IMG/VR virus record: IMGVR_UViG_2563366821_000011
Length of the DNA stretch: 13,293 bases
DNA from: a virus
Taxonomy: Duplodnaviria; Heunggongvirae; Uroviricota; Caudoviricetes
Direction: 5' to 3' (one strand)
Each line of letters opens with the position of its first letter. The stretch's first letter is position 1. Below the pieces are notes generated by a model, which worked only from the letters and a program-made list of their open reading frames with translations, was not told where the DNA came from and did not search any database. The translations under genes were made by a program, and so were the position numbers. Below, in pieces: positions 1 to 13,293 of the stretch.

Positions 1-669
1 ATGTGTGGACGCTTTGCCCAATCCCAAACGCGTGAAGATTACCTCGCGTTTCTCGCGGAAGATATTGAACGCGATATTCCCTACGATCCCGAACCTATTG
101 GCAGATACAACGTCGCGCCGGGAACCAAAGTCCTTCTGCTCAGTGAACGTGATGAACACCTTCATCTGGATCCGGTTTTCTGGGGATATGCTCCCGGATG
201 GTGGGATAAACCGCCGCTGATTAACGCCCGCGTAGAAACTGCCGCAACCAGTCGCATGTTTAAACCGCTCTGGCAACATGGTCGGGTAATATGCTTTGCC
301 GATGGCTGGTTTGAGTGGAAAAAAGAAGGCGACAAAAAACAGCCTTATTTTATCTATCGCGCTGATGGACAACCTGTTTTTATAGCCGCGATAGGTAGCA
401 CACCGTTTGAGCGCGGTGACGAAGCCGAAGGAGTTTTAATTGTCACTGCAGCAGCAGACCAGGGCCTGGTAGATATTCATGACCGCCGCCCGCTGGTACT
501 GTCGCCAGAAACTGCGCGGGAATGGATGCGGCAAGACATTGGTGGTAAAGAAGCCTCAGAAATCGCTACCAGAAGCTGTGTGCCAGCAAACCAGTTCATC
601 TGGCACCCTGTGTCGCGCGCGGTGGGTAATGTTAAAAACCAGGGCGCGGAGTTAATTCAACCTGTTTGA
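1..669 (+). CDS. yedK: SOS-response-associated peptidase (SRAP) / abasic-site processing protein YedK, 222 aa
   Basis: ORF opens with MCGRF (the N-terminal Cys2 nucleophile typical of SRAP proteins) and matches YedK of E. coli as I recall it. ATG at 1, TGA at 667-669. Confidence 0.9.
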   Translation: MCGRFAQSQTREDYLAFLAEDIERDIPYDPEPIGRYNVAPGTKVLLLSERDEHLHLDPVFWGYAPGWWDKPPLINARVETAATSRMFKPLWQHGRVICFADGWFEWKKEGDKKQPYFIYRADGQPVFIAAIGSTPFERGDEAEGVLIVTAAADQGLVDIHDRRPLVLSPETAREWMRQDIGGKEASEIATRSCVPANQFIWHPVSRAVGNVKNQGAELIQPV

Positions 670-887: not shown

Positions 888-919
888 TTAGTGTATGATG
901 GTGTTTTTGAGGTGCTCCA

Positions 920-1195
920 GTGGCTTCTGTTTCTATCAGCTGTCCCTCCTGTTCAGCTACTGACGGGGTGGTGCGTAACGGCAAAAGCACCGCCGGACAT
1001 CAGCGCTATCTCTGCTCTCACTGCCGTAAAACATGGCAACTGCAGTTCACTTACACCGCTTCTCAACCCGGTACGCACCAGAAAATCATTGATATGGCCA
1101 TGAATGGCGTTGGATGCCGGGCAACAGCCCGCATTATGGGCGTTGGCCTCAACACGATTTTACGTCACTTAAAAAACTCAGGCCGCAGTCGGTAA
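920..1195 (+). CDS. insA: IS1 InsA (transposition repressor / N-terminal part of the InsAB transposase), 91 aa, GTG start
   Basis: Translation [22 protein letters not shown]... with a CxxC...CxxC zinc finger and an HTH. Stop TAA at 1193-1195. Confidence 0.9.
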
Positions 1196-1617
1196 CCTCG
1201 CGCATACAGCCGGGCAGTGACGTCATCGTCTGCGCGGAAATGGACGAACAGTGGGGCTATGTCGGGGCTAAATCGCGCCAGCGCTGGCTGTTTTACGCGT
1301 ATGACAGGCTCCGGAAGACGGTTGTTGCGCACGTATTCGGTGAACGCACTATGGCGACGCTGGGGCGTCTTATGAGCCTGCTGTCACCCTTTGACGTGGT
1401 GATATGGATGACGGATGGCTGGCCGCTGTATGAATCCCGCCTGAAGGGAAAGCTGCACGTAATCAGCAAGCGATATACGCAGCGAATTGAGCGGCATAAC
1501 CTGAATCTGAGGCAGCACCTGGCACGGCTGGGACGGAAGTCGCTGTCGTTCTCAAAATCGGTGGAGCTGCATGACAAAGTCATCGGGCATTATCTGAACA
1601 TAAAACACTATCAATAA
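1114..1617 (+). CDS. insB: IS1 InsB reading frame (catalytic part of the InsAB transposase, made by -1 frameshift at AAAAAAC 1171-1177)
   Basis: 167-aa ORF in the -1 frame relative to insA that overlaps the insA 3-prime end. The A6C slippery motif sits at 1171-1177. Confidence 0.85.
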
Positions 1618-1632
1618 GTTGGAGTCATTACC
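1610..1632. repeat. IS1 right terminal inverted repeat (about 23 bp)
   Basis: Reverse complement GGTAATGACTCCAACTTATTGAT matches the left IR at most positions. Confidence 0.85.
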
Positions 1633-1663
1633 TCTGATCCCATGGTAATTCAGCTGTTATTTT

Positions 1664-2650
1664 CTATTTAAGAATAAAACGGTATTTACTGTCAGGAGTG
1701 CTTTGCTGATCAAGTAGCAGTGAACGACATGGAGCAGTCAAAACCCGAGCATAACTACCATCAGGGCTTATGTTAATGTAACAAACCTTGCCCTTAACAC
1801 TATAATTTTCGGGGACGGATGCCTTTGCTGATACAGTAAATTTAAGGGTATGCCAGCCCGTTTTTTGCTTGTAGCTTGAAACCGAATGGAAATCATCTGA
1901 GTACTTATTTAACCCTGGAAACATGCTGCGCAGTGCGGGGATGGAATCTTCTATTATTTTATCGTTGGTTTTAATGTTAAAAACGCTGGTTTCAGTAGAA
2001 GCTACTGCTTTGGCATTTCCCCATTTACCAGCGAACACAATCATTCCCACGAAAAATATTGCTACAAGAACTAACACTCCCCCCAACACTACTACATGAG
2101 GCTTCCGGCTTCTGGTTGGTACAGTTGCGACTGATTTTGCACCGCTTTCCGATGGAGGTGATAGAGTTTTACTCTCATCACGAATATTCAGCAGATCATC
2201 AAAATAACCAAACACAGCCTGCAACTGCTCTTTGTCTAGGCCTTTAAGATGGGTTGTACCGAAATGCTTCAGACAGTATCTGTCACGGTCAAGACGATAC
2301 CCAGGGTCAGTAAGCGCCATTATTTTGCTGACCAGAAGATTACAGTCCTTCATATTCTGGATCTGTTGTGCATATCTCTGAAGGATCTCAACCGCACCAT
2401 GATAATCAGCCGCAGTCATTTCATTAACTGTTTTGGTATTAAGTTTCGTGTGGATCGTCATCCATAGCTCGCGCTTACTTTCCCCCAGATCAACCAATTC
2501 ATCCATCAATCTGTGTAAATCGCGTTTTTGCAGCAACGAAATTGGTTGCTGGGCCGAAGGAAGTATGTCAGCAGAATAGTTATGAATGGTAACATCACCG
2601 CTGACAACGTTACCCACATCCCCGTTAACTGTTTGCTTCTCTTTACTCAT
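1664..2650 (-). CDS. Hypothetical single-pass membrane protein, 328 aa, translationally coupled to the prophage repressor
   Basis: 987-bp ORF in an AT-rich region (about 37-40 percent GC by hand count). Its ATG overlaps the repressor stop in an ATGA. One strongly hydrophobic segment (VVVLGGVLVLVAIFFVGMIVFAG, about aa 185-207) is flanked by basic residues. The N-terminal motif GDVGNVVSGDVTI resembles the repressor C-terminal tail. I recognise no known family. Confidence 0.7.
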   Translation of the reverse strand: MSKEKQTVNGDVGNVVSGDVTIHNYSADILPSAQQPISLLQKRDLHRLMDELVDLGESKRELWMTIHTKLNTKTVNEMTAADYHGAVEILQRYAQQIQNMKDCNLLVSKIMALTDPGYRLDRDRYCLKHFGTTHLKGLDKEQLQAVFGYFDDLLNIRDESKTLSPPSESGAKSVATVPTRSRKPHVVVLGGVLVLVAIFFVGMIVFAGKWGNAKAVASTETSVFNIKTNDKIIEDSIPALRSMFPGLNKYSDDFHSVSSYKQKTGWHTLKFTVSAKASVPENYSVKGKVCYINISPDGSYARVLTAPCRSLLLDQQSTPDSKYRFILK

Positions 2651-3108
2651 CTTCTCTTGGTATTTTTGTTCATTATTCCACCTGTTCCTATGGTTACGTT
2701 ACCTTTGATAACATTCCCCAGAACATCTCCATGAATAACCTGTTCCGCCCGTTCTCTGGAGGAGCCAGTAGTCAAGGCCGACAAAACTGAACCTTTGACC
2801 TGTAATGGTGCCTGCCGGTAGTGCTGCAGTAACTCCATTTCATCACGTGATAAAGTTATACCTGATGACTCCCCGGTAAGAATGAACTGTACATTGGCCC
2901 CAATTCTTGCAAAGGCTGCAAGTAACTCACCTCCGGGAACAGCAACCCCTCGTTCATATTTCCCCCACATTTCTCTTGAAACGCCACAAAGGGCTGCTAC
3001 TTCAGCCTGCTTGAGTGATAACCGCGAACGCTCAGCTTTGAACCGCGACGCGCAAAGAGAATCAAAATTCACACAAACCTCATTGACAATGAGAACAATA
3101 GTTCTCAT
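2647..3108 (-). CDS. XRE/Cro-C1-type HTH transcriptional repressor (prophage c-repressor analogue), up to 153 aa
   Basis: HTH motif LSLKQAEVAALCGVSREMWGKYERG. Transcribed divergently from the early operon, as for Mu c. The start is uncertain: ATG at 3108 lies inside the operator palindrome and has no SD (possibly leaderless), while an in-frame GTG at codon 13 is preceded by GAGG. Confidence 0.75.
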   Translation of the reverse strand: MRTIVLIVNEVCVNFDSLCASRFKAERSRLSLKQAEVAALCGVSREMWGKYERGVAVPGGELLAAFARIGANVQFILTGESSGITLSRDEMELLQHYRQAPLQVKGSVLSALTTGSSRERAEQVIHGDVLGNVIKGNVTIGTGGIMNKNTKRR

Positions 3109-3111
3109 AAT
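3083..3111 (+). promoter_or_regulatory. Putative sigma70 early promoter (Pe-like): -35 TTGACA (3083-3088), 17-bp spacer, -10 CATAAT (3106-3111)
   Basis: Consensus -35, ideal 17-bp spacing and a 5/6 -10, lying 48 bp upstream of the ner-position gene whose SD is AAGGAG and ATG is at 3159. Confidence 0.5.
3089..3108. promoter_or_regulatory. Putative operator: perfect palindrome ATGAGAAC-N4-GTTCTCAT within the early promoter spacer
   Basis: 8-bp perfect inverted repeat arms with a 4-bp spacer between the -35 and -10 of the rightward promoter. It overlaps the first codons of the repressor ORF. Confidence 0.5.
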
Positions 3112-3158
3112 CTATCACATATAAAACAAACATCATTGCATCAACAAAGGAGACAACA

Positions 3159-3347
3159 ATGACTTCCGAACAAGTTAAAAATCTCTTCCGTCAGCGTGGT
3201 ATCACGTTTACCCGCTGGGCCGAAGAACACGGCTACAGCCGCAATGAGGTCTATCGTGTTCTCAATGGACAGACCAAAGCTCGTTACGGCAAAGCCCATG
3301 AAATTGCCGTAAAACTGGGATTAAAACCCACGTCAAATGCGGCATAA
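3159..3347 (+). CDS. Small HTH DNA-binding protein in the ner position (Ner/Cro-like early regulator), 62 aa
   Basis: Strong SD AAGGAG 7 nt upstream. HTH-like segment TRWAEEHGYSRNEVYRVLNGQ. First gene of the rightward operon, opposite the repressor. Not obviously similar in sequence to Mu Ner. Confidence 0.65.
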   Translation: MTSEQVKNLFRQRGITFTRWAEEHGYSRNEVYRVLNGQTKARYGKAHEIAVKLGLKPTSNAA

Positions 3348-3399
3348 ATTTTCCACATATGCAACAGGTTATCACATATTGCAAAAATGGAAATGTGAC

Positions 3400-3708
3400 A
3401 TGAGTAAAGTAAATATTTCCAGTTCTGGGACCCGCATCCTACGTGTACTCAAAGCTCTACGCGGTCATGCTCTGAACGGTGTTTCTAACGGTGAACTGGC
3501 ATCAGCCCTGGGGGAGTCCCCGGCGAATATCAATCGAGCACTTAATACCCTTATTGAAGAGGGACTGGCCATGAAATTAGAGAACGGACGTTTCGCACCG
3601 GGAATCCAGTTACTACAGATCGCCATGGCTCACAGTCACGAGATGGCGCGTGCACAGGATCGTATTAACGAAATCAACCAACGAGTTATTTCAGGTAGTC
3701 GTTTGTAA
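3400..3708 (+). CDS. Winged-HTH DNA-binding protein (IclR/MarR-like N-terminal domain only), about 103 aa
   Basis: Motif ILRVLKALRGHALNGVSNGELASALGESPANINRALNTLIEEGLAMK resembles an IclR-type wHTH. Start chosen at ATG 3400 (weak SD); an alternative in-frame ATG at 3337 overlaps the upstream gene. Confidence 0.55.
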   Translation: MSKVNISSSGTRILRVLKALRGHALNGVSNGELASALGESPANINRALNTLIEEGLAMKLENGRFAPGIQLLQIAMAHSHEMARAQDRINEINQRVISGSRL

Positions 3709-3718
3709 GGAGTAATCA

Positions 3719-4633
3719 ATGGGACGCACCAAATCACCCGTTAACACTGAACTGAATGTTGAGGTTCCGCTGTCAGATAACATCAATGTCAATTTGAACG
3801 CTATGACACAGCATCGCATGGAAATTATGCAGCAGTTTGGTGATGGACTGCCTTATGAACGTGATCGCATTGTTCACGAAGCACGTTTTTATATGGCGCA
3901 GAGTGCTGAATCTATGCTGGAAGCGGGTAAGCGGCTGATCATCTTAAAAGAAAATGAGCCACACGGTGATTTTACAAACATTTTAGAAAATGAACTCGGA
4001 CTTGCACCACAAGTTGCTCGCCGCATGATGCAAGCCAGTATGAAGTTTTTGGGAGAAGGTGATGAGCCAACAAAACGCTCAACGTTGAGCGTTTTGGGGA
4101 AAGCCAAACTGTACGACCTGATGGTTCTGGATAATGAAGAACTTGATGAATTGGCCGACGGCGGCACAGTTGCCGGCCTGACGCTTGACGACGTTGATCG
4201 CATGTCAGTACGTGAATTGCGTCAGGCCCTGCGCGAAGCGCGCGAAACCAACGCAGCACAACAGCGCGTACTCGCCGACAAAAATGAAAAAATAGATTCA
4301 CTCTCCACCAGACTGGAGAAGAAATCCCGTATTCAGCCGCCTGAGCCTGATGAGGAGGTTAAGAAGCTGCGGGCGGAAGTAACAGCATTAGCGGTTGAGG
4401 CGGAATCTGCTATCGCCGTCCGACTGTCCAGCGCTTTTGAGACGCTGTGCGCATATTGTGCTGAAAACATGATTGATACCCCCAGAGACTTCATGGCAGG
4501 CCTGGTCTGTCAACTGGAAAGCACAGCGCGTAGCCTGCGCTCCACATTTGACCTGCCGGACGAGCCAACAGGCAATGCAGCGCCTTCATGGCTGACTGAG
4601 CCGACGCCACAGATTAACGGGCTGGAGGCATAA
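3719..4633 (+). CDS. Hypothetical early protein, DUF3102-like N-terminal region plus coiled-coil and acidic C-terminus, 304 aa
   Basis: SD TAAGGAG 6 nt upstream of ATG. Motif HGDFTNILENELGLAPQVARRMMQASMKF resembles what I recall of DUF3102. Stop is 3 nt before the transposase ATG. Confidence 0.6.
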   Translation: MGRTKSPVNTELNVEVPLSDNINVNLNAMTQHRMEIMQQFGDGLPYERDRIVHEARFYMAQSAESMLEAGKRLIILKENEPHGDFTNILENELGLAPQVARRMMQASMKFLGEGDEPTKRSTLSVLGKAKLYDLMVLDNEELDELADGGTVAGLTLDDVDRMSVRELRQALREARETNAAQQRVLADKNEKIDSLSTRLEKKSRIQPPEPDEEVKKLRAEVTALAVEAESAIAVRLSSAFETLCAYCAENMIDTPRDFMAGLVCQLESTARSLRSTFDLPDEPTGNAAPSWLTEPTPQINGLEA

Positions 4634-4636
4634 CCA

Positions 4637-6406
4637 ATGAATGCTGCCCTGACTGAACGACTGGTTTATGTCGCCCGCGCGGCACGTGACGCGGGGCATG
4701 GTAAACGCGGTGCAATATACGACGCTGCCTGTGCTGAACTTGGCATGTCCCGCGCCACTCTGCTGCGCAGGCTGAAGGAGGTCTCTGTGACTGATAAACG
4801 CAAAAAACGCGCCGATGCCGGGCGCAGCGCCCTGACCCGCGACGAAGCCGCGCTGATATCTGCCACACTGCGTGAGGCCACCCGCAAGAACGGTAAGCGT
4901 CTCTATTCCATCGCAGATGCAGTGGAAACCCTACGGGCTAACGGCTTTATCACCGCAGGCAGAACAGATGAAACCACCAGTGAGTTTTTCCCGTTGTCTG
5001 AAGATGCCATCAGCCGTGCTCTGCGTAACTATGGCCTGCACCCGGAACAACTGGATGCCCCTGCACCACATACCGAAGTGGCCAGTCTGCATCCCAATCA
5101 TGTCTGGCAGATTGACGCCTCACTCTGCACGCTTTACTACCTGAGCAATGGACATAAAGGGCTGCAGGTGATGGACAGCGCGAAGTTCTACAAGAACAAG
5201 CCCGCTAACCTTGCCCGTATCGCCAGTGACCGCGTGTGGAGTTACGAGATTACCGACCATGCCAGCGGCTGGATTTACGTTGAGTATGTGACGGGCGCGG
5301 AATCAGGTGAGAACCTGTGTTCTGTGCTTATCAACGCCATGCAGGAGCGTGGCGGCGCAGACGTGCTGCACGGCGTGCCGAAAATACTCTATCTCGACCC
5401 CGGCTCGGCAAACACCGCGGGTATGACGAAAAACATGTGCCGCTCACTGGGCATCGACCTGATAGCGCACAAGCCGCATAACGCCCGCGCCACCGGACAG
5501 GTGGAAAAGGCGCGTGACATTATCGAACGCAAGCTGGAGCCGGGGCTGAAGTTCCGGCCGGTTCACAGTCTGGAAGAACTCAACGCGCTGGCCGCGAAAT
5601 GGCGCAGCCACTTTAACGCCACGGCTGTTCACAGCCGCCACGGTAAAACCCGCACGGATATCTGGCTGAAGATTACTGCTGAGCAGCTGAAAAAAGCGCC
5701 TTCCGTTGAGGTATGTCGTGAACTGGCTGTGGCGGCACCAGAACTCCGCAAAGTCACGCCAAAACTTCGTGTCTCGTTCCGGGGCACTGAATTTGACGTA
5801 TCAACGGTACCGGGCGTACTGGTTGGTGAAAAACTGATGATTACCCGTAACCCATGGCGCAGCGATGTGGCACAGGTGGTTCTGACCGGTGAGGACGGCC
5901 ACGAGACGTTCTTCCTGGTCGAAGAGGTCAGAAAGAACGAGTTTGGCTTTGCTGAAGGCGCGGCGGTATTTGGCGAAAGTTACAAAGCCCTGCCGGAAAC
6001 CTCGGCACAGATGGCGGCAAAAGAAACTGAAGCGCTGGTTACCGGTACAGACAACGCTGCAGATGCAGCCGCCGCACGCAAGGCGAAGGCGCTGCCGTTC
6101 GGCGGGCGGCTTGACCCGTATAAACATATCGACGACACCACACTTCCGGCCTATATGCCGAAGCGTGGTCAGGCCTCTGACGTACGCGGGCCGCGCACTG
6201 AACAACGTCCCATGACTCATGTGGAGGCCGCGAAAGCCCTGCGCGATAAGTTCAGCGCCGACGGCCTTACCTGGACGCCGGAACATTACCGCCAGTTAAC
6301 GGCACAGTACCCGGACGGCGTACCGGAAGCTGCACTGGATGAAGTCATGGCCACGCTGACCACGCCGGCACGCAGCAGTGTTATCAGCATTGTTAACGGC
6401 AACTGA
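4637..6406 (+). CDS. Mu-like DDE transposase (A protein), 589 aa
   Basis: N-terminal HTH, then an rve-type catalytic core with D160 (HVWQIDAS), D254 (LYLDPGS) and E290 (ATGQVEKA; D-35-E spacing). Located immediately upstream of the AAA+ B gene. Confidence 0.9.
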   Translation: MNAALTERLVYVARAARDAGHGKRGAIYDAACAELGMSRATLLRRLKEVSVTDKRKKRADAGRSALTRDEAALISATLREATRKNGKRLYSIADAVETLRANGFITAGRTDETTSEFFPLSEDAISRALRNYGLHPEQLDAPAPHTEVASLHPNHVWQIDASLCTLYYLSNGHKGLQVMDSAKFYKNKPANLARIASDRVWSYEITDHASGWIYVEYVTGAESGENLCSVLINAMQERGGADVLHGVPKILYLDPGSANTAGMTKNMCRSLGIDLIAHKPHNARATGQVEKARDIIERKLEPGLKFRPVHSLEELNALAAKWRSHFNATAVHSRHGKTRTDIWLKITAEQLKKAPSVEVCRELAVAAPELRKVTPKLRVSFRGTEFDVSTVPGVLVGEKLMITRNPWRSDVAQVVLTGEDGHETFFLVEEVRKNEFGFAEGAAVFGESYKALPETSAQMAAKETEALVTGTDNAADAAAARKAKALPFGGRLDPYKHIDDTTLPAYMPKRGQASDVRGPRTEQRPMTHVEAAKALRDKFSADGLTWTPEHYRQLTAQYPDGVPEAALDEVMATLTTPARSSVISIVNGN

Positions 6407-6416
6407 GGAGGAAAAC

Positions 6417-7583
6417 ATGCTGGTACTGAAGCAGCAACTGAAAGAGGCCCGTATCCCACAGGCGGTGGTGGCGAGAGCTGTCGATGTTTCTGAGGCCACG
6501 CTGGCCCAGATTGTGAATCATAACGCGTGGCCCCGCACCAGCCCCGGAGAAGTGCGCCGGCGTCTTGCGTCCTGGCTGGAAAGTCAGGGGATTGATACAA
6601 CGAAGAGTTTTGATGCTGTACAGGGCGCAGCCACGCCCCGTACAGCGGGTACCACAGATAAAACGAGCCTCAGTGAGGAAGAGAATATGTTACTCAAAAA
6701 ACAGGTGTTATTTCCAGCAACCAAAAAAGCGTTTGGTCTTTTCCGTGACCCGTTCGCCGATGAAGCCATGCAGGGTTCTGATGATGTGTTCACCACCCCG
6801 GACATTCGCTACGTGCGTGAGGCGTTGTACCAGACAGCCCGTCATGGTGGGTTTATGGCCGTCATCGGTGAGTCCGGTGCGGGTAAATCCACGCTGCGCC
6901 GCGACCTGACTGAACGTATCAACCGCGAGAATGCGCCGGTAATTGTTATCGAGCCATACATCATCGCTATGGAAGACAACGATGTGAAAGGGAAAACCCT
7001 GAAGGCAGCAGCGATTGCCGAAGCCATTATCAGTACCATCGCACCACTGGAAAGCATCAGACGCAGTCAGGACGCCCGCTTTCGCCAGTTGCATCGCGTC
7101 CTGAAAGACAGCAGCCAGGCGGGGTTCAGCCACGTTTTGGTGATTGAGGAGGCCCACAGTCTGCCCATTCCGACACTGAAACACCTCAAACGCTTTTTTG
7201 AGCTGGAGTCCGGTTTCAAAAAACTGCTGTCCATCGTGCTGATTGGCCAGCCGGAACTGGCGACAAAACTGTCTGAACGCAATATGGAAGTCCGTGAAGT
7301 CGTTCAGCGTTGTGAGGTGGTCGAACTTCTGCCTCTGGACAATAACCTTGAAGAATTTCTGACGTTCAAACTGCAACGGGCCGGTAAACAACTGACGGAC
7401 ATTATGGACGCCAGCGCAGTGGATGCCATACGTGCCCGCCTGAGCAATCCGGGAAGTCATCGTAAAAATATGGTCAGCCTGCTGTATCCGCTGGCCGTCA
7501 GTAACCTGGTGATAGCCGCCATGAATCTGGCCGCTGAAATCGGGGTTCCACAGGTCAACGCTGACGTTGTCAAAGGGGTTTAA
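6417..7583 (+). CDS. Mu B-like AAA+ ATPase (transposition target DNA activator), 388 aa
   Basis: SD GAGGAGG directly upstream. N-terminal HTH (QAVVARAVDVSEATLAQIVN), Walker A GESGAGKST and Walker B VLVIEEAH. An in-frame internal ATG with its own SD lies at 6687. Confidence 0.85.
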   Translation: MLVLKQQLKEARIPQAVVARAVDVSEATLAQIVNHNAWPRTSPGEVRRRLASWLESQGIDTTKSFDAVQGAATPRTAGTTDKTSLSEEENMLLKKQVLFPATKKAFGLFRDPFADEAMQGSDDVFTTPDIRYVREALYQTARHGGFMAVIGESGAGKSTLRRDLTERINRENAPVIVIEPYIIAMEDNDVKGKTLKAAAIAEAIISTIAPLESIRRSQDARFRQLHRVLKDSSQAGFSHVLVIEEAHSLPIPTLKHLKRFFELESGFKKLLSIVLIGQPELATKLSERNMEVREVVQRCEVVELLPLDNNLEEFLTFKLQRAGKQLTDIMDASAVDAIRARLSNPGSHRKNMVSLLYPLAVSNLVIAAMNLAAEIGVPQVNADVVKGV

Positions 7584-7585
7584 TA

Positions 7586-7855
7586 ATGAAATCCACCACA
7601 GGTATCAACCAGCAAATCAGCAAAGTGCAGTCAGCCATTATGGCGCTTAAGGCGACGAACACGGATGTACAAAGCATCACCATCAGGGGTAACAAACCTG
7701 TCATCCGCGTTTCCCGGAGTGCGCATTGCATGCGCATGCTTGAGCAGGGAAAGGCCTGTTATCTGTATACCGGACATGACCACAGGGGATATTTCCGTCA
7801 GGGCGTTTTCGAACTGCACGGCTGTCGCGTCGTGTGGCCGGAATCTTTGTGGTAA
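7586..7855 (+). CDS. Hypothetical early protein, 89 aa
   Basis: ATG 3 nt after the B stop, with SD-like AAGGGG upstream. No recognisable motif. Confidence 0.55.
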   Translation: MKSTTGINQQISKVQSAIMALKATNTDVQSITIRGNKPVIRVSRSAHCMRMLEQGKACYLYTGHDHRGYFRQGVFELHGCRVVWPESLW

Positions 7856-7882
7856 TCAGCACAACAGGAGGAGTCATAAAAT

Positions 7883-8413
7883 ATGGCAAAAAGTACAAAA
7901 GGGGCAAAACGTATCAAAGCCGCAGCAGCACTCTGGGTGCCGGGGACACGCGAAGAGGTCATTGAGGGAATCAGACTGCTTGGTGACGCGCAACGTGAAC
8001 TGGTCAGGGCTGAAACAGAAATGAATGACACCATTGGCGACATCACTGCACGTTATGCCCCGCTCACCGAGAGCCTGAAAAAACGCATGGCCGAACTGCA
8101 GTCCGGTATCCAGACATGGTGTGAGGCGCACCGTGATGAACTGACCGGCAACGGGAAGGTGAAGTTCGCTAACCTCACCACCGGCGAGGTGCAGTGGCGA
8201 AACCGTCCGCCGTCAGTCAGCATTCGCGGGGCGGATAATGTCATTGAACTGCTGAGACGTCTGGGGCTTGAGCGCTTTATTCGTGTAAAGGAGGAAATAA
8301 ATAAAGATGCCATTCTGAATGAAAAAGAGGCCGTGAAAAATATTCCCGGTATTTCCATTAAAAGCGACATTGAGGATTTTTCAATAATTCCTTTTGAGCA
8401 GGATGTGCAGTAA
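7883..8413 (+). CDS. gam: Host-nuclease inhibitor Gam (Mu Gam family, Ku-like DNA-end binding), 176 aa
   Basis: Strong SD AGGAGG. Co-linear with Mu Gam as I recall it: MAKxxKRIKxAAAxxVP..., TEMNDxI, WCEAxRDELT, PPSVSIRGxDxV, GLxRFIRxKxEINKxAIL and C-terminal EDFSIIPFEQ. Confidence 0.9.
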   Translation: MAKSTKGAKRIKAAAALWVPGTREEVIEGIRLLGDAQRELVRAETEMNDTIGDITARYAPLTESLKKRMAELQSGIQTWCEAHRDELTGNGKVKFANLTTGEVQWRNRPPSVSIRGADNVIELLRRLGLERFIRVKEEINKDAILNEKEAVKNIPGISIKSDIEDFSIIPFEQDVQ

Positions 8414-8510
8414 ACACACCACGTTAATTATTTAATAAAAACATTTTCTTTTTTATTCCGGCGTCAGCGCCGTGGGCTTCTGCACGCCGGAAACAGAGGA
8501 GAATTAAATT

Positions 8511-8705
8511 ATGATATTTAAATGTATTCAGTGCGAGAGGGATATAACAGCCCTGCGTTTTCACAGCGCCATCGCCGTGATGTCCGGTAAGTATCACATA
8601 CCTGCAGTACGTGTCACCCTGGTCTGCCCGTACTGCAGCCAGCATTTTTCGGCGGACGTGCCCGTCATGGAATTCTCCCGCCCTGACAGGGAGGACGCGC
8701 AATGA
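8511..8705 (+). CDS. Small zinc-ribbon protein, 64 aa
   Basis: SD GAGGAG. Two CxxC pairs (C5/C8 and C39/C42). Its stop overlaps the next start in an ATGA. Confidence 0.55.
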   Translation: MIFKCIQCERDITALRFHSAIAVMSGKYHIPAVRVTLVCPYCSQHFSADVPVMEFSRPDREDAQ

Positions 8706-8974
8706 TTACCCCACAGGAAGCACGACAGCGCACCCGAACCCTTGTTGAACACTATGTCAACGAGTGTGAATGCCGCGACCTCACCGATGTGAATCACGTC
8801 CTGACGGCGCTAATCAGCATGGCCACACAGGCCATTGTGGCGACCAACGGAAAGGAGGCTGCCCTGCAGGTACTGATGAACACACTCACCCACACGGCAG
8901 AGCATGAGGTGCCGTACCGGATGGAAACCACTGCAGAAGGCGGCCTGCACATCACCGTCAGCCGGAAGCACTGA
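8702..8974 (+). CDS. Hypothetical early protein, 90 aa
   Basis: ATGA overlap with the upstream ORF. Codon usage matches its neighbours. Confidence 0.5.
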   Translation: MITPQEARQRTRTLVEHYVNECECRDLTDVNHVLTALISMATQAIVATNGKEAALQVLMNTLTHTAEHEVPYRMETTAEGGLHITVSRKH

Positions 8975-8983
8975 GGGCGCGGC

Positions 8984-9280
8984 ATGACACGAAACACCGA
9001 ACTCACCCGCACCGCCCTCTACCGTCTGGCCCTGCAGCGTTTCGGGCCGGACGCACAGGCCCTGAAACTGGCAGAAGAGGCCGCTGAACTGGCGGCCAGT
9101 GCCGCCCGCAACCTGAACGGACAGGGCAGCGAAAGTGACCTCGCGGCAGAGCTGGCAGACGTGGAAATCATGACAGAGCAACTGCGCCTTCAGGGGATGG
9201 ACCGGCTGATTGACTTCCACAAACAGAAAAAACTGGAACGTCTGGCTGCACGACTGGGCGTGATTTACACGAACGAGTAA
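8984..9280 (+). CDS. MazG-like nucleoside triphosphate pyrophosphohydrolase domain protein, 98 aa
   Basis: Motifs KLAEEAAELAASAARN and AAELADVEIMTEQL resemble the acidic EExxE and E-x-x-D metal-binding helices of small MazG/HisE-like NTP-PPases. SD GAGGG upstream. Confidence 0.6.
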   Translation: MTRNTELTRTALYRLALQRFGPDAQALKLAEEAAELAASAARNLNGQGSESDLAAELADVEIMTEQLRLQGMDRLIDFHKQKKLERLAARLGVIYTNE

Positions 9281-9294
9281 CCGGGAGGCATTCA

Positions 9295-9510
9295 ATGGCT
9301 GACATACTCAGGGAAATCACCGCATGGACACTGATTCTTACTGGCCTGGCGACATGCCTCAGTGCGGGGGCAGCCCTGGCTGCCCTGCTGATGCACATAA
9401 CAACACAGTGGTTATGGGAAAAGCTTAAAGCAGCATACAGCCTGAAAGAGCTGTCCGACGCTGTCCGGGCATGGAAACGGCAGAAAAATACCGGAGATAC
9501 AGAACAATGA
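9295..9510 (+). CDS. Small membrane protein, 71 aa
   Basis: SD GGGAGG. Hydrophobic helix ITAWTLILTGLATCLSAGAALAALLM. Its stop overlaps the next start in an ATGA. Confidence 0.5.
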   Translation: MADILREITAWTLILTGLATCLSAGAALAALLMHITTQWLWEKLKAAYSLKELSDAVRAWKRQKNTGDTEQ

Positions 9511-10190
9511 CAGACCAGAATAAACACATTGAGAAACTGAAAAAGTTGCTGGCGCTGGCCGCATCCGGCAACCCGCACGAGGCCGCTCTGGCACTGCGCC
9601 GAGCCCGTAAACTGATGGATGTTCACGGCATCACACATTCCGACATTGCTATGAGTGATATTGATGAAACCATCAGTCACTACTGGCCGACAGGCAGTCT
9701 CCGTCCACCGCGCTACATGCTGGGCCTGATGAACATCATCCGCGAGGTATTTGGTGTTAACTCCATCATTCACCCCGGCACGCACCCGTCTGTGGGGTTC
9801 TACGGCAACCGGGAACGTGCGGCACTGGCTGCATACACCTGGGAAGTGCTGGCCCGTCAGCTGAAAAAGGCGCGTCAGCAGTATATCAGTGCACAGAACA
9901 AAAGAATAAAAACCGCCACCCGCACCAGCCGTGGAGACCAGTTTGCCGAAGGCTGGGTGCTGGCCGTTATCAGTGAAATACAGTCCTTTGCCCTGACCGA
10001 TGATGAGCGTGAACTGATGCAGCAGTGGCTGGAACATAAATACCCGCAGACGCAAACCACCAGGGCGCGTAAACCGGGAAGAAGCCGCAATGGCGACGCC
10101 TCGCGCTATGCGGGGTTTCGTGAAGGGCAGAACGTCAGACTGCACCGCCCGGTCAGTGGGCAGGAACAACAGAAACTGGAGGCCAGATGA
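9507..10190 (+). CDS. Hypothetical early protein with DUF2786-like N-terminal motif, 227 aa
   Basis: N-terminus IEKLKKLLALAASGNPHEAALALRRARKLMDVHGI matches the conserved DUF2786 motif as I recall it. ATGA overlap with the upstream gene, SD GGAGA. Confidence 0.6.
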   Translation: MTDQNKHIEKLKKLLALAASGNPHEAALALRRARKLMDVHGITHSDIAMSDIDETISHYWPTGSLRPPRYMLGLMNIIREVFGVNSIIHPGTHPSVGFYGNRERAALAAYTWEVLARQLKKARQQYISAQNKRIKTATRTSRGDQFAEGWVLAVISEIQSFALTDDERELMQQWLEHKYPQTQTTRARKPGRSRNGDASRYAGFREGQNVRLHRPVSGQEQQKLEAR

Positions 10191-10417
10191 TTACGCTATC
10201 AGGTAACAGCCGGAAATTAAAAGCCTGCCGAATATCTGCCAGATACCTTTTTGCCCGCGCCTTTTTTAAGAACGTCAGGCCGGGGATCACAATTGGTGTT
10301 ATTGCCGGACGCGAACAGGTTGAAAAATACATGTCAGGTGCATGGTGGAATAACGACCCTGTCATTGCTGCCCGTAATATTCATATCAGTTGGGGGGATA
10401 TTCAGAATGACGGCTGA
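10187..10417 (+). CDS. Hypothetical small protein, 76 aa
   Basis: ATGA overlap with the upstream gene; basic N-terminus. Weakly supported. Confidence 0.4.
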   Translation: MITLSGNSRKLKACRISARYLFARAFFKNVRPGITIGVIAGREQVEKYMSGAWWNNDPVIAARNIHISWGDIQNDG

Positions 10418-10622
10418 ATCTGTTGTATGTGCCCTGTTCTGGTATTGTTTTGTCGGTTGGTGTACTGCTGAACTGCACCGCCGTTCAGGGTTTTATTCAC
10501 GTTACAGTGGTGCCGGCTACTGGATTAGCTGGTCGGTGATGTTCCTGTGCTGGCCTGTGGCGCTTCCTTTATATGTCGATTATATCGGTGGCGCAGGTAA
10601 AAGGAGCAACGATGATGACTAA
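10407..10622 (+). CDS. Small membrane protein, 71 aa
   Basis: SD GGGGGGA 8 nt upstream of ATG. Two hydrophobic, Trp/Cys-rich segments (VVCALFWYCFVGWC and WISWSVMFLCWPVALPLYV). Confidence 0.45.
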   Translation: MTAESVVCALFWYCFVGWCTAELHRRSGFYSRYSGAGYWISWSVMFLCWPVALPLYVDYIGGAGKRSNDDD

Positions 10623-11064
10623 ACAACGTCTTATCCAGCTCATTCATATTGCCCGTAATGAACTGGGTATGGATGAAGACACCTACCGCCAGATGTTACA
10701 GGGGCTGACCGGTAAAGCCTCAACCAAAGGAATGGATACCACACAACTAAACTGCGTGCTGGAATCCATGAAAAGGAAAGGCTTTCGCGTTAAGCCTGCC
10801 AGAAAAGCCAGCTCCGGTTTACCGCTGGATAACCATCCGCAGTCCAGGAAAATCCGTGCGCTATGGCTTGAAATGGCTGCTGCCGGCATTGTTCGTGACC
10901 GTTCAGAAAATGCATTAGCGCGGTGGATCAAGCGGGAAACGGGCATCAGCGCCCTGCGCTGGCTCAATACTGAACAGGCAAGCAGTGTTATTGAGAAACT
11001 GAAGAAGTGGCAGCGCAGAGCTGCGGGAGTAAAACATGAGCGACCTGAATCAGTTTCGAAGTAA
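10612..11064 (+). CDS. gemA: GemA-like protein (Mu gp16 family, DUF1018), 150 aa
   Basis: SD AAGGAG 5 nt upstream. N-terminal motif KQRLIQLIHIARNELGMDEDTYRQMLQGLTGKAS is typical of Mu gp16/GemA-like proteins. Lies immediately upstream of mor, as in Mu. Confidence 0.7.
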   Translation: MMTKQRLIQLIHIARNELGMDEDTYRQMLQGLTGKASTKGMDTTQLNCVLESMKRKGFRVKPARKASSGLPLDNHPQSRKIRALWLEMAAAGIVRDRSENALARWIKRETGISALRWLNTEQASSVIEKLKKWQRRAAGVKHERPESVSK

Positions 11065-11434
11065 AGGGCCGGAACTCCTGGTGGAACTGGCACAGCATAC
11101 CTCTGAGACCGTTCGCGAGATTATTGATATTGAGCCCGCAATTGCCGACCAGATTGGTCAGGCCGTCGCGAACCGAATGATGCAGGTCTGGGGCGGGCAA
11201 AACGTTTATTTCCCGATGGGCATGGTATGGAAGGTCAGTCAGCGCGACCGGGAAATCTTCAGGGAGTTTAACGGACGCAACCACCACGAACTGGCCCGCA
11301 ATTTTGGTGTTTCGCTTCAGTGGGTCTACAGCGTGGTTAAGCGGGTCAGAAAAGAAGAACTGGATCGGATGCAGGGCAGGTTGTTTGATGAAGATCTGCC
11401 AGAGGAGACGAAAGACGTTAACAAATCCAGATAA
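11036..11434 (+). CDS. mor: Mor-family transcriptional activator (middle operon regulator), 132 aa
   Basis: Motifs GGQNVYFP and FNGRNHHELARNFGVSLQWVYSVVKRVRK match the Mor/C family HTH region. Last gene of the early operon. Confidence 0.85.
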   Translation: MSDLNQFRSKGPELLVELAQHTSETVREIIDIEPAIADQIGQAVANRMMQVWGGQNVYFPMGMVWKVSQRDREIFREFNGRNHHELARNFGVSLQWVYSVVKRVRKEELDRMQGRLFDEDLPEETKDVNKSR

Positions 11435-11479
11435 TTCCTGCTTGTTAAAGTCCTTTCAAAAATCTCCTTATTGTATAAG

Positions 11480-11511
11480 AGCACGGTAGACCCTTTACCG
11501 TGCTTTTTTTA
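11480..11511 (+). terminator. Rho-independent terminator-like hairpin (stem AGCACGGTA / TACCGTGCT, 7-nt loop, T-run)
   Basis: Perfect 9-bp inverted repeat immediately followed by 6-7 T, 46 bp after the mor stop. It could also serve as a dyad protein-binding site. Confidence 0.6.
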
Positions 11512-11548
11512 TGCTCTCTATGTAATATTCAGGATGCAGGGAGAAAAT

Positions 11549-12181
11549 ATGTTTGACGTTTCGTTATTAAATCTGCCATGGGCAACACTGGTGACCCTGA
11601 CCAGTGGCTATATTGGGTATTTTATTGCGAATGTGGGGCTGAAGGATCACCACAAACCCATTGAGGTGACTTTTTCTTCGCTGATTTTTGGCCTGACAGC
11701 AATGATGGCTTACCAGGCTGTTATGTGGGCAGGTCTGAATGCCTGGCTGGCAACCCCCCCAGCACTTCTGTGTGCCGTTACATGCGGTGCGTGGTGGCGC
11801 AGGTACGGTCGCAAATGGATGTACAGATTACTGTGGAATAATGATATTTCATGGTCTGACAATACCAGCTCAGCATGGCAGGCAATGTTTGATCAAACAG
11901 GCTTCAGCGTCACCGAGGTCAGAGTGATTCTTCGCGATGGTTCCGGTATGATGTCACGGCTGCCAGGGAACTTTGAAGAGTGGCCTAACGGTCCGTTTAC
12001 CCTGGGAAATAAAGGCGATATGGTTCTTTACGTCACGCACAGCAGCCCTTCAGGAAGTAACGAATGGGAAGAGTATAAAGGCGTGGTTGATAAGTACTGG
12101 GGAGCTCTGGCAACCTATATTCCAGCAGATCAGATTGCCAGAGTGGAGATCAGGCGCGTTCGTGCAACGAACGATGAATGA
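11549..12181 (+). CDS. Hypothetical membrane protein (three N-terminal TM helices plus a soluble C-terminal domain of about 120 aa), 210 aa
   Basis: SD GGGAGA 7 nt upstream of ATG. Three hydrophobic segments in the first 85 aa, followed by RRYGRK. Occupies the position where Mu carries C. No family recognised. Confidence 0.65.
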   Translation: MFDVSLLNLPWATLVTLTSGYIGYFIANVGLKDHHKPIEVTFSSLIFGLTAMMAYQAVMWAGLNAWLATPPALLCAVTCGAWWRRYGRKWMYRLLWNNDISWSDNTSSAWQAMFDQTGFSVTEVRVILRDGSGMMSRLPGNFEEWPNGPFTLGNKGDMVLYVTHSSPSGSNEWEEYKGVVDKYWGALATYIPADQIARVEIRRVRATNDE

Positions 12182-12343
12182 TGTTTATTTTTTCCCTGGA
12201 GCAGGAGCTGCCGGCATAGTGGTTTTATTGGCAGAGGAAGACGATTCTCCTTTTCTACCGGAATCGCGCTCGAACGTCACAATGTGCTTGCTTTTGGGCT
12301 TTTCTGAGTAATCCAGGCTGTCATGCTTATTGTTTTGAGTAGT

Positions 12344-12421
12344 CATTGGAATCATCCTTTTTGTTACGGGTCATGTTTCAGCAAACTCGATTCTAAGTTG
12401 CCAGGAAGGATGATTTCAATG
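12344..12421. repeat. Inverted repeat, 16 bp arms (CATTGGAATCATCCTT / AAGGATGATTTCAATG, 15/16 match) separated by 46 bp
   Basis: Direct reading of the sequence: arms at 12344-12359 and 12406-12421. Confidence 0.5.
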
Positions 12422-12499
12422 CCCGACTTATCTATCGTATAGCGGAAAAGAATTTCAGTTCTGTTCACCAGAACCCATGTTAACCCACTCCAATTCGTT

Positions 12500-12532
12500 A
12501 TTTATCTCACGGATCCCCCTTCATTTATCTCA
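12500..12532. repeat. Direct repeat ATTTATCTCA x2 (12500-12509 and 12523-12532), 23-bp register, next to the dgcQ junction
   Basis: Exact 10-bp direct repeat, each followed by a GATC-containing segment, lying just inside the foreign DNA. Confidence 0.4.
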
Positions 12533-13293
12533 TGTCTGATCAACCAGTAGTTATTACTGTCTACCGGAACACTGACGGTAACCTGCGGTTCAGTATTGCT
12601 GGCGTGTTCCGGTTGCGAAGTGAACCAGCGTACCGCGCGGTGACGATTTTCTCGTTGTGAATGGCCGATAAACCAGGGTTGGGTGACATAGCCGTAATAA
12701 CGCGTTGGTACATTGCGCGTAAACAAGGTCGGCAGCGTCGAAACGTAAAATCCAGCACGCGAGACATACACCGCCTGTTCAACCATCGACGAGGAGTTGT
12801 GCGCCAGTCGCAGCAAGTAACCAACTTCCAGTGCAGCGGTAATTTCATTGTCGAGGCTTTCATTTTCGCGAGACAGGAGATTCCCCTCGCTGACTAATGC
12901 ATCCGATACGCCATTGACTGGCAGGGTGCGCCGTCGGTTGAGTTCGATTTGCCAGGTGTGCTCGTCGCGATGCTGTTCGAACTCGGTTACGGCATTACGC
13001 AGAGAGGTGAAATCCAGTGGCGCCACGAGAGCTTCGCGCATGCCATTACGCAAAAAGATCAGTTTGTCGACGTTATACTGCAAATGCTTATCGAGCGCGT
13101 TGGCTACGTTTTCCAGATGATTACGCTGGCTGGAGATATAGGCATCTTCCAGCACCACCACTTCACGCCAGGTGAGCAAGGTGGAAAAAAGCAATACCAC
13201 GATAAAGCAGAGATTAACGATATGACCAGGCCCCAGGCGGCGTGCGAGTTTTTTCAACCAGCTCTGGTTTTCCATTTTTGTCTCGTGCTGCAC
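12502..13293 (-). pseudogene. dgcQ: 5-prime fragment of a DgcQ/YedQ-like membrane-anchored diguanylate cyclase gene (N-terminal TM and periplasmic sensor domain only; GGDEF domain absent)
   Basis: The ORF starts at the window edge (GTG) and reads [15 protein letters not shown]..., with a signal-anchor TM ([18 protein letters not shown]) and a periplasmic-type domain. It ends after 263 aa with a short unrelated tail ([13 protein letters not shown]) and has no GGDEF motif. Identity is from memory of E. coli YedQ (about 564 aa). Confidence 0.55.

Follow-up and report, generated by a model that had tools for sequence, protein, structure and literature searches.

What do transposable phages of the Mu type carry between gam and gemA, and which parts could these genes play during the early phase of the phage? 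The harm that the semi-essential early region (SE, also SEE) of Mu-type phages does to the host has been known for decades, and most of its genes are still without an assigned function. In Mu, the 14 open reading frames (ORFs) of the region lie with A and B on one long early transcript, and its deletion restored the viability of infected cells, indicating that the region is harmful to the host (PMC3325207). Moreover, other authors remark that conservation among Mu-like genomes is lowest in this region (PMC4553209). Here we address this question in a stretch of 13,293 nucleotides (nt), called the window throughout, from the viral record IMGVR_UViG_2563366821_000011 (Caudoviricetes), which contains an element that, judged by its sequence, is a BcepMu-like transposable prophage. 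Seven plus-strand ORFs of 64, 90, 98, 71, 227, 76 and 71 amino acids (aa) fill the interval between gam and gemA (8511-10622), and they are called here o64, o90, o98, o71a, o227, o76 and o71b. We conclude that these seven genes are probably the gam-to-gemA part of a single long early operon, in which one near-core gene (o227) and two lineage-wide genes (o98 and o64) are combined with four small exchangeable cassettes.

An earlier reading of the sequence alone, made before any database search, had described seven ORFs at this place, joined by ATGA or other short overlaps, in the position of the poorly characterised SE region of Mu. The presence of seven ORFs was upheld by the present analysis, which also finds them on one strand and conserved: the RefSeq/PGAP annotation of a 100%-identical copy calls precisely these seven genes, all seven match a PHROG family over their full length (E 5e-15 to 2e-77), and diverged alleles exist in relatives. 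The ratio of non-synonymous to synonymous substitution rates (dN/dS) against such alleles, taken from 41 viral contigs and the phages KP12 and Phi06_2974 B, was 0.0-0.4 for six of the genes and higher, at about 0.3-0.8, for o90. Because of the full-length family matches and of ratios well below 1 in six genes, the ORFs can be taken as real genes, and their substitution patterns are those of purifying selection in all seven. The location in the equivalent of the SE region is likewise confirmed by the identity of the flanking genes, and the literature bears out that in Mu this region is poorly characterised and harms the host (PMC3325207). The statement about overlaps holds for four of the six internal junctions, with ATGA overlaps at 8702, 9507 and 10187 and an 11-nt overlap at 10407, whereas at the two others the genes stand 9 nt (8975-8983) and 14 nt (9281-9294) apart; a further overlap of 8 nt, at 10615, joins the block to gemA. 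Similarly, the description of the ORFs as small fits six of them (64-98 aa) but not o227, of 227 aa. The coding density of the block is 98.9%, a Shine-Dalgarno-like motif stands 5-12 nt 5′ of every start, and alignments of homologues favour the shorter starts at 9507, 10407 and 10615 over those of the longest ORFs. The MazG-like and DUF2786/DUF7168 identities described below are additions to that first description.

The product of the longest gene, o227, combines two domains of the Pfam collection, DUF2786 (42.9 bits, cut-off 23.9) followed by DUF7168 (90.4 bits, cut-off 25.5), the former at residues 20-56 of the 239-aa ORF, that is, residues 8-44 of the 227-aa protein, and it is strongly constrained (dN/dS 0.05-0.12). 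The surroundings of its homologues were surveyed by a profile search with one genome per species, from which the best 80 loci were kept, 59 of them with more than 11 kb of sequence. In these 59 loci, all from different species, o227 was accompanied by a transposase (46/59), B (45/59), GemA (52/59) and Mor (39/59), and the order A, B, o227, gemA, mor was observed in nearly all of them. The gemA gene was on the same strand as o227 in the 63 loci holding both, downstream of it in 61, and within 700 nt in 43, either directly adjacent (13 loci) or 150-700 nt away (30 loci). The hosts of these loci comprise Enterobacterales, Gilliamella, Pasteurellaceae, Aeromonas, Vibrio, Rhodocyclales, Neisseriales and acetic acid bacteria, and the context in an Aeromonas Mu-like prophage agrees with the same linkage. 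As it follows from this co-occurrence and from the fixed order with A, B, gemA and mor, this DUF2786/DUF7168 subfamily is a near-core early gene of transposable phages and not an accessory one. The interval between o227 and gemA, on the other hand, is a slot that takes up small genes, filled here by o76 and o71b.

Structure prediction, a route that the sequence-only reading had pointed out, was successful in part: the AlphaFold2 models of o227 and o64 are both confident, with a predicted local distance difference test score (pLDDT) of 86, but neither found a significant fold match in the Protein Data Bank (PDB). The o227 model begins with a helical hairpin, continues with a small alpha/beta unit and long helices, and ends in a flexible C-terminal tail that is conserved. 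In the BFVD collection of predicted viral structures it has 31 matches, all of them uncharacterised DUF2786/DUF7168 proteins from very diverse phages. A KH-domain-like sub-domain was also considered, and its scores (E≥0.3, probability 0.4-0.66) leave it as a weak lead. Most likely, o227 would serve the early lytic programme, either in replication-transposition or in the control of early genes, and its binding partner might be nucleic acid or a host factor.

The two lineage-wide genes, o98 and o64, are enterobacterial in range and, like o227, under strong purifying selection. As in the superfamily of MazG, HisE/PRA-PH and small MazG-like phage enzymes, o98 is a protein of about 100 aa, predicted to be helical, with a pair of putative metal-binding motifs, E31-E32-x-x-E35 (EExxE, 31-35) and E56-x-x-D59 (ExxD, 56-59), which are identical in the KP12 and Phi06_2974 B homologues (dN/dS 0.12-0.32). 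The best Pfam match of o98, below threshold, is PRA-PH, itself a member of the MazG clan, and the alignment to the PHROG 2245 profile, a family with no curated cut-off, covers only positions 113-211 of 218. No match to solved MazG structures was obtained by sequence. The protein most likely hydrolyses non-canonical or signalling nucleotides. Searches of the literature with DUF2786, DUF7168 and the RefSeq accessions of the block retrieved no functional study, and only one entry in a table of transposon-directed insertion-site sequencing (TraDIS) data, which concerns a homologue of o98 (WP_001295929). In the Escherichia coli strain EC958, of sequence type ST131, insertions in this homologue (locus 02987) were depleted about four-fold (log fold change, logFC, -1.96) under colicin plus ethylenediaminetetraacetic acid (EDTA), a depletion for which the authors offer no explanation (PMC6351738). 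A paper on 'Sp18/MazG' proved to be unrelated to these genes.

With regard to o64, the double CxxC of the zinc ribbon foreseen from the sequence was corroborated: no intact homologue, either at 50% or at about 30% identity, has lost any of the four cysteines (C5, C8, C39 and C42). The latter group, from Serratia, Xenorhabdus and Erwinia, carries the motif CPHCxQxY. The gene is always found after gam or after a DUF3164 gene, and its dN/dS is 0-0.22. The model is all-beta, with a three-stranded sheet and cysteine-bearing loops, and its nearest PDB folds by Foldseek are zinc ribbons of NrdR, with a probability of 0.9-0.99, a template modelling (TM) score of about 0.5 on the query and non-significant E values (0.14-0.5). 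Like the N-terminal zinc ribbon of NrdR, the o64 model bears a pair of CxxC knuckles, with some 30 residues between them, on a sheet of three strands; unlike NrdR, o64 lacks any partner domain: it stands alone without an ATP-cone and shares no sequence similarity, and the resemblance between the predicted and the solved fold may be generic to zinc ribbons. The spacing of the cysteines also brought up the N-terminal zinc domain of the MqsA/YgiT type, which was discarded after finding no Pfam, NCBIfam or PDB-profile match and no MqsA chain among the top 50 Foldseek matches in the PDB. The 'Ika' matches in the PDB profile search with o64 were repeat artefacts. A small adaptor that binds DNA or protein would be the likely role of o64.

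A very different behaviour is shown by the four smallest or least conserved genes, which behave as exchangeable cassettes that are deleted, replaced or sporadic among relatives. About 9 of the 41 related viral contigs have lost o71a by a clean deletion in frame, after which the tail of o98 runs into the final six codons of o71a (..GVMYTGDTEQ*) and the ATGA overlap with o227 is retained (for example, L029, about 5600-6006). A second allele, 67-70% identical, keeps the C-terminal half and differs mainly in the membrane helix. The gene o76 is absent from several related prophages, and copies about 71% identical occur in a siphovirus and in the ea region of P22-like Lederbergvirus phages, where its neighbours are methylase and TraR-like genes; its dN/dS against KP12 is 0.17, and no Pfam, PDB or defence-library match was found for it. 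The other allele of o71b, which is 41% identical and occurs in many contigs and in the Escherichia phage PhiKM, keeps the hairpin topology and the motif (F)WPVxLP. Natural variants are therefore at hand that lack o71a, lack o76 or carry the other o71b allele, the last of them including a phage record, PhiKM. In the same 59 loci with o227, we counted o64 in 14, o98 in 10, o71b in 12, o76 and o90 in 1 each, and o71a in none.

That o71a and o71b, both of 71 aa, are small membrane proteins had also been proposed from the sequence, and the predictions made here agree. In o71a there is one hydrophobic helix at about residues 9-33 (Kyte-Doolittle peak 1.88-1.98; dN/dS 0.25-0.41), and in o71b two such helices, at about residues 5-21 and 44-60 (Kyte-Doolittle 1.5-1.65, peaks 1.61-1.65; dN/dS 0.15-0.26), flank a positively charged loop. 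Proteins of about 70 aa with two helices and the (F)WPV signature were also observed directly 3′ of the hairpin element described below, in the variable early region of distant Mu-like prophages (L114, 1662-1874; L115, 2212-2424), and they may form one superfamily with o71b. The remaining cassette, o90, is the fastest-evolving gene of the block, with dN/dS of 0.26-1.66, mostly 0.4-0.8. It belongs to a small family of proteins of about 80 aa (27 representatives at E≤1e-3 among 1.84 billion proteins), whose alignment (A6) shows the motif M[IV]TPxEAE and the invariant residues D29 and G50. Positive selection on o90 was considered and rejected, as values above 1 occur only where some six substitutions are compared and are not significant. 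Searches with o90 of Pfam, the PDB and the defence library gave no match.

How would these genes be expressed? A pattern scan of the plus strand revealed a candidate early promoter 5′ of the ner-like gene and an intrinsic terminator just 3′ of mor, which probably ends the early operon, and detected no comparable terminator between 3100 and 11470. Inside the block there was no convincing plus-strand promoter or terminator, only a weak six-pair stem (10547-10563) and a 9/12 promoter match on the minus strand, and the counts of such sites equalled those of shuffled sequence. The block would be transcribed only after loss of the repressor, from the promoter at about 3083-3111 to the terminator at 11477-11507, and translation would pass from gene to gene, because every start codon, together with its Shine-Dalgarno motif, is located inside the gene before it or immediately behind that gene. 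In such an operon, o227 would make up a first layer, travelling with gemA and mor across many genera, and the enterobacterial genes o98 and o64 a lineage-wide second one. The four small cassettes, two of them membrane proteins, would form a third layer of individually dispensable genes that condition or poison the host at the level of the envelope, division, exclusion or counter-defence. The genes, their conservation, architecture and family assignments and the behaviour of the cassettes are observations, whereas co-transcription, translational coupling and all biochemical roles are what we infer from them.

Several points weigh against this reading. The survey of o227 loci kept the best 80 matches to two peptide patterns and is therefore biased to close relatives. 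Mu itself has no DUF2786/DUF7168 gene, no Mu-type genes were called at the locus of the Komagataeibacter homologue of o227, and the family is also present in non-transposable and in virulent phages. From its presence in the latter two groups and its absence from Mu, it follows that the family is not strictly bound to transposition. As for o98, it scores below every curated threshold of the MazG clan (15.5 against 21.3 bits for PRA-PH in Pfam, 14.6 against 42.7 for TIGR03188 in NCBIfam). The promoter and terminator assignments are pattern matches, and no significant structural match was found for any protein of the block, either in the PDB sequence search with all seven or in the fold search with o227 and o64. 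Moreover, the block genes may never be expressed in this strain, where the prophage is truncated.

Table 1. Coordinates of the features discussed, ordered along the window
Feature	Position	Strand	Remarks
yedK	1-669		
IS1 copy	~900-1632		
c-like repressor gene	2647-3108	-	Intact
Candidate early promoter (Pe equivalent), TTGACA-17-CATAAT	3083-3111	+	11/12 matches, 5′ of ner-like gene; pattern match only
ner-like gene, then helix-turn-helix protein gene, then DUF3102 gene	Between repressor gene and transposase A		
Transposase A	4637-6406	+	Pfam and PGAP
B	Ends 7583	+	Pfam and PGAP
gam, host-nuclease inhibitor	7883-8413	+	Pfam Phage_Mu_Gam E 1.9e-40; 61% identical to Mu Gam
Conserved intergenic element: U-rich tract, GC hairpin (arms 8456-8464 / 8484-8492, conserved loop), GAAACAG, o64 Shine-Dalgarno	8434-8510	+	
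o64, four-cysteine protein (CxxC...CPxC), predicted zinc ribbon, 64 aa, first after gam	8511-8705	+	phrog_3401 E 1.2e-40
o90, 90 aa, fastest-evolving gene of the block	8702-8974	+	phrog_3691 E 1.4e-55
o98, MazG-like all-alpha nucleoside triphosphate pyrophosphohydrolase (putative), 98 aa	8984-9280	+	phrog_2245 E 5.5e-34; same name in PGAP
o71a, predicted single-pass membrane protein with charged C-terminal helix, 71 aa	9295-9510	+	phrog_3958 E 1.1e-41
o227, basic (isoelectric point 10.1) DUF2786 + DUF7168 protein, 227 aa	9507-10190	+	phrog_421 E 2e-77
o76, basic protein, mobile cassette, 76 aa	10187-10417	+	phrog_3681 E 4.1e-54
o71b, aromatic-rich, two predicted membrane helices, 71 aa	10407-10622	+	phrog_6436 E 5.2e-15
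gemA	10615-11064	+	Pfam GemA E 7.7e-41; PGAP gp16 family; 36% identical to Mu GemA
mor	11036-11434	+	PGAP Mor family; 31% identical to Mu Mor
Candidate intrinsic terminator, 14-pair stem + TTTTTTT	11477-11507	+	Just 3′ of mor

A comparison with Mu shows what is shared and what is not. As in the SE region, the genes of the block lie on one strand between B/kil/gam and gemA/mor, with homologous flanks, and are closely packed small ORFs; Mu has cysteine-rich, zinc-ribbon-like proteins of its own, Mu_6 and Mu_13. None of the seven, however, is homologous to Mu gp11-gp15 or Mu_54, since BLASTP and phmmer searches against the early proteins of Mu matched only Gam, GemA and Mor, and a MazG-like gene is absent from Mu. 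The block is thus the equivalent of the Mu SE region by position and organisation and not by gene content. A further difference is that the early operon reads here toward the genome end at 12542, which is the arrangement of BcepMu.

Among the closer relatives, the Klebsiella phage KP12 (OM835952) and Phi06_2974 B (KM389306) both have o64, o98 and o71b, whereas o76 has a counterpart only in KP12, and o227 and o90 have theirs only in Phi06_2974 B. The shared genes are 45-90% identical and keep the order and the overlapping starts seen here, and KP12 preserves the overlaps even though its genes differ, with a single 128-aa gene in place of o90, o71a and o227 and a DUF3164 gene in place of gam. 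PhiKM differs from the window in its o71b allele and in the annotation of a minus-strand ORF in place of o64. In this line, DUF3164 proteins of about 205 aa were seen in the slot of Gam in KP12 (L044, 3381-3992) and in an Aeromonas Mu-like prophage (L048, 5567-6187), and no Gam was detected in Phi06_2974 B, which points to a single position that is filled by either DUF3164 or Gam. The Mu-like sequence of KP12 stands in a record that is nevertheless classified within Vequintavirinae.

The 97-nt gap between gam and o64 contains an element of about 80 nt that turned out to be shared with Mu. Its RNA fold reaches -31.3 kcal/mol, with a z-score of -3.55 against shuffled sequence, and a homologous layout fills the gap between gam and gp11 in Mu, with 47 invariant alignment columns (L046, Mu 6343-6426). 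The element was also found in KP12 (L044, 3993-4074) and in Phi06_2974 B, and L045 (3993-4073) is among its locations. A search with a covariance model placed it 3′ of gam or of DUF3164 at 17 viral or Mu loci, as well as at 15 loci of enterobacterial genomes from GTDB. Five of the nine stem pairs show compensatory changes, and 88.9% of the alignment cells are paired, as compared to 31-44% when the partners are slid, in an alignment that was fitted to the covariance model and thereby favours structure. The genes 3′ of the element vary by locus and include members of the o64 family, of the Mu gp11 family, a lipoprotein-like gene and two-helix FWPV membrane proteins. No Rfam family was detected in the window, and the element is also unannotated in the Mu record. 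Two simple explanations were rejected. A terminator fits neither strand, as the U-tract lies 5′ of the stem on the plus strand; and a clamp that sequesters the Shine-Dalgarno motif around the hairpin, present in the minimum-energy fold of the window, was not kept by RNAalifold across relatives, where only the core stem persisted. Where the variable region begins, the element may regulate how mRNA is translated or processed, or it may be a conserved recombination linker. In any case, a hairpin shared with Mu provides a small and testable regulatory lead in a classic model phage.

Do the small genes take over the host or counteract its defences, as the sequence-only reading had proposed, with inhibitors of cell division and of nucleases as examples? 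The proposal found no backing in family or structure searches. PADLOC-DB, which covers defence families, gave no match at E≤0.1 for any of the seven proteins (no anti-defence library was searched), NCBIfam gave none above cut-off, and significant structural matches were lacking. The gain, loss and allele exchange of the four cassettes, together with the fast evolution of o90, lend indirect support to effector roles. A broader possibility is that at least one of the uncharacterised proteins is a new takeover or counter-defence effector, with o64, o90 and the (F)WPV hairpin protein as the best candidates, that o227 is moreover an unrecognised near-core factor acting with GemA or Mor, and that the hairpin is a new cis-regulatory signal gating the variable region; this combination we regard as possible and advance only tentatively.

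It is unlikely, in our opinion, that the block serves mainly as an island of counter-defence genes next to Gam, an inhibitor of RecBCD, in which o64, o90, o76 and o98 inhibit anti-phage systems, for instance by blocking nucleases or by destroying immune-signalling or chain-terminating nucleotides. Gain, loss and allele replacement of cassettes are typical of arms-race loci, o90 evolves faster than any of its neighbours, o76 passes between phages of unrelated types and has methylase genes for neighbours in P22-like phages, in the ea region, and defence nucleotides are conceivable substrates of a MazG-type enzyme, all of which, with the proximity to Gam, would suit such an island. Nevertheless, o64, o98 and o227 combine strong purifying selection with a stable position, which fits housekeeping phage functions, the o90 ratios above 1 come from the handful of substitutions already mentioned, and the searches against defence families and structures described above were negative.

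Exclusion factors are typically small membrane proteins, either single-pass or hairpin in form. The membrane proteins and other cassettes might accordingly be lysogenic-conversion or superinfection-exclusion genes expressed from the resident prophage, a proposal that would explain why the remnant is retained, and that draws on the survival of the early region in a truncated prophage and on a single TraDIS observation, in which insertions in the EC958 homologue of o98 affected fitness (PMC6351738). The cassettes, however, are buried deep in a repressor-controlled operon, where their starts overlap and no plus-strand promoter-like site accompanies them, the c-like repressor gene is intact, and the G+C content of 0.47-0.60 across the seven genes shows no outlying, moron-like composition among the cassettes (they were not compared one by one with the phage genes around them), all of which makes this proposal improbable. 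Finally, that some of the ORFs are chance frames, or hide a real gene on the opposite strand, is hardly credible and already largely refuted: the minus strand does hold long ORFs, of 92 aa (8424-8702), 161 aa (8810-9295) and 333 aa (9168-10169), and the GenBank record of PhiKM annotates the first of them in place of the zinc-ribbon gene, but the substitutions match the plus frames (14 synonymous and 1 non-synonymous for o64 against L027), each of the seven plus-strand ORFs has its full-length PHROG family, the minus frames gain stops or indels in relatives and are closed in diverged homologues, and the 333-aa frame is codon-aligned with o227, a gene without TTA, CTA or TCA codons. We thus rejected the three minus-strand ORFs as by-products of codon usage, and the one annotated in PhiKM is probably a mis-call, because such frames are not kept open in diverged relatives.

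The layered early operon therefore stays as the preferred reading, and it is not an exotic one. Among the accessory early regions of Mu-type phages the block is nothing out of the ordinary and has the usual make-up, and all seven proteins are already in RefSeq as hypothetical, DUF or NTP-pyrophosphohydrolase family members. What is new are the two family assignments, the near-core status of o227 and its linkage to gemA-mor, the behaviour of the cassettes and the hairpin element shared with Mu. In this regard, the block represents a well-delimited and very common E. coli version of the SE region, and the three classes of genes separate those that merit tests of a role in the phage's own early programme from those that merit screens for toxicity or counter-defence. 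Current understanding would remain unchanged unless an experiment reveals a new activity.

The window itself is a piece of an E. coli chromosome, with yedK (1-669), a copy of IS1 (about 900-1632) and the prophage (1633-12542, about 10.9 kb), whose right end lies at about 12542 within dgcQ, the frame of which (12502-13293, minus strand) departs from the normal protein near 12540. Copies of the prophage that are 100% identical occur in several complete genomes, five of those listed being also inserted in dgcQ, and the seven-gene block is present in 640 of 5,426 complete E. coli genomes (~12%). PhiKM (PQ738613), classified as Bcepmuvirus, is 98% identical to the prophage and covers 93% of the block, an identity that comes with transposase, B, gam, gemA and mor. 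Intact copies extend to the left of 1633 with more phage genes, including those for a holin and a transglycosylase. The copy in the window lacks any late genes and one end, with IS1 and yedK standing there instead; it is a truncated, defective remnant cut by IS1, and the junction with yedK is likely the result of an IS1-mediated deletion or rearrangement. The early operon has been kept whole, with the ner-like gene, the helix-turn-helix protein gene, DUF3102, transposase A, B, an 89-aa gene, gam, the seven genes, gemA and mor.

Some neighbouring genes deserve a mention. The 89-aa gene (7586-7855, plus strand), directly 3′ of B, occupies the position of kil in Mu, and the C-terminus of its product (..HGCRVVWPESLW) is weakly like the end of Mu Kil (..NGCQIIWR), with no match to the Kil_protein model of Pfam. 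Adjoining the repressor gene lies the gene for a 328-aa protein (1664-2650, minus strand), which in its N-terminal half resembles Flk, a flagellar regulator (NCBIfam PRK10715, E 2.9e-12, with a score far under the cut-off), and which contains a hydrophobic stretch (VVVLGGVLVLVAIFFVGMIVF) with the look of a membrane segment. Between the early terminator and the end of the prophage there are a gene for a 210-aa membrane protein (11549-12181, plus strand) and a 56-aa gene (12185-12355, minus strand), both swapped for other sequence in relatives of the PhiKM type, which makes this interval a second variable spot at the genome end.

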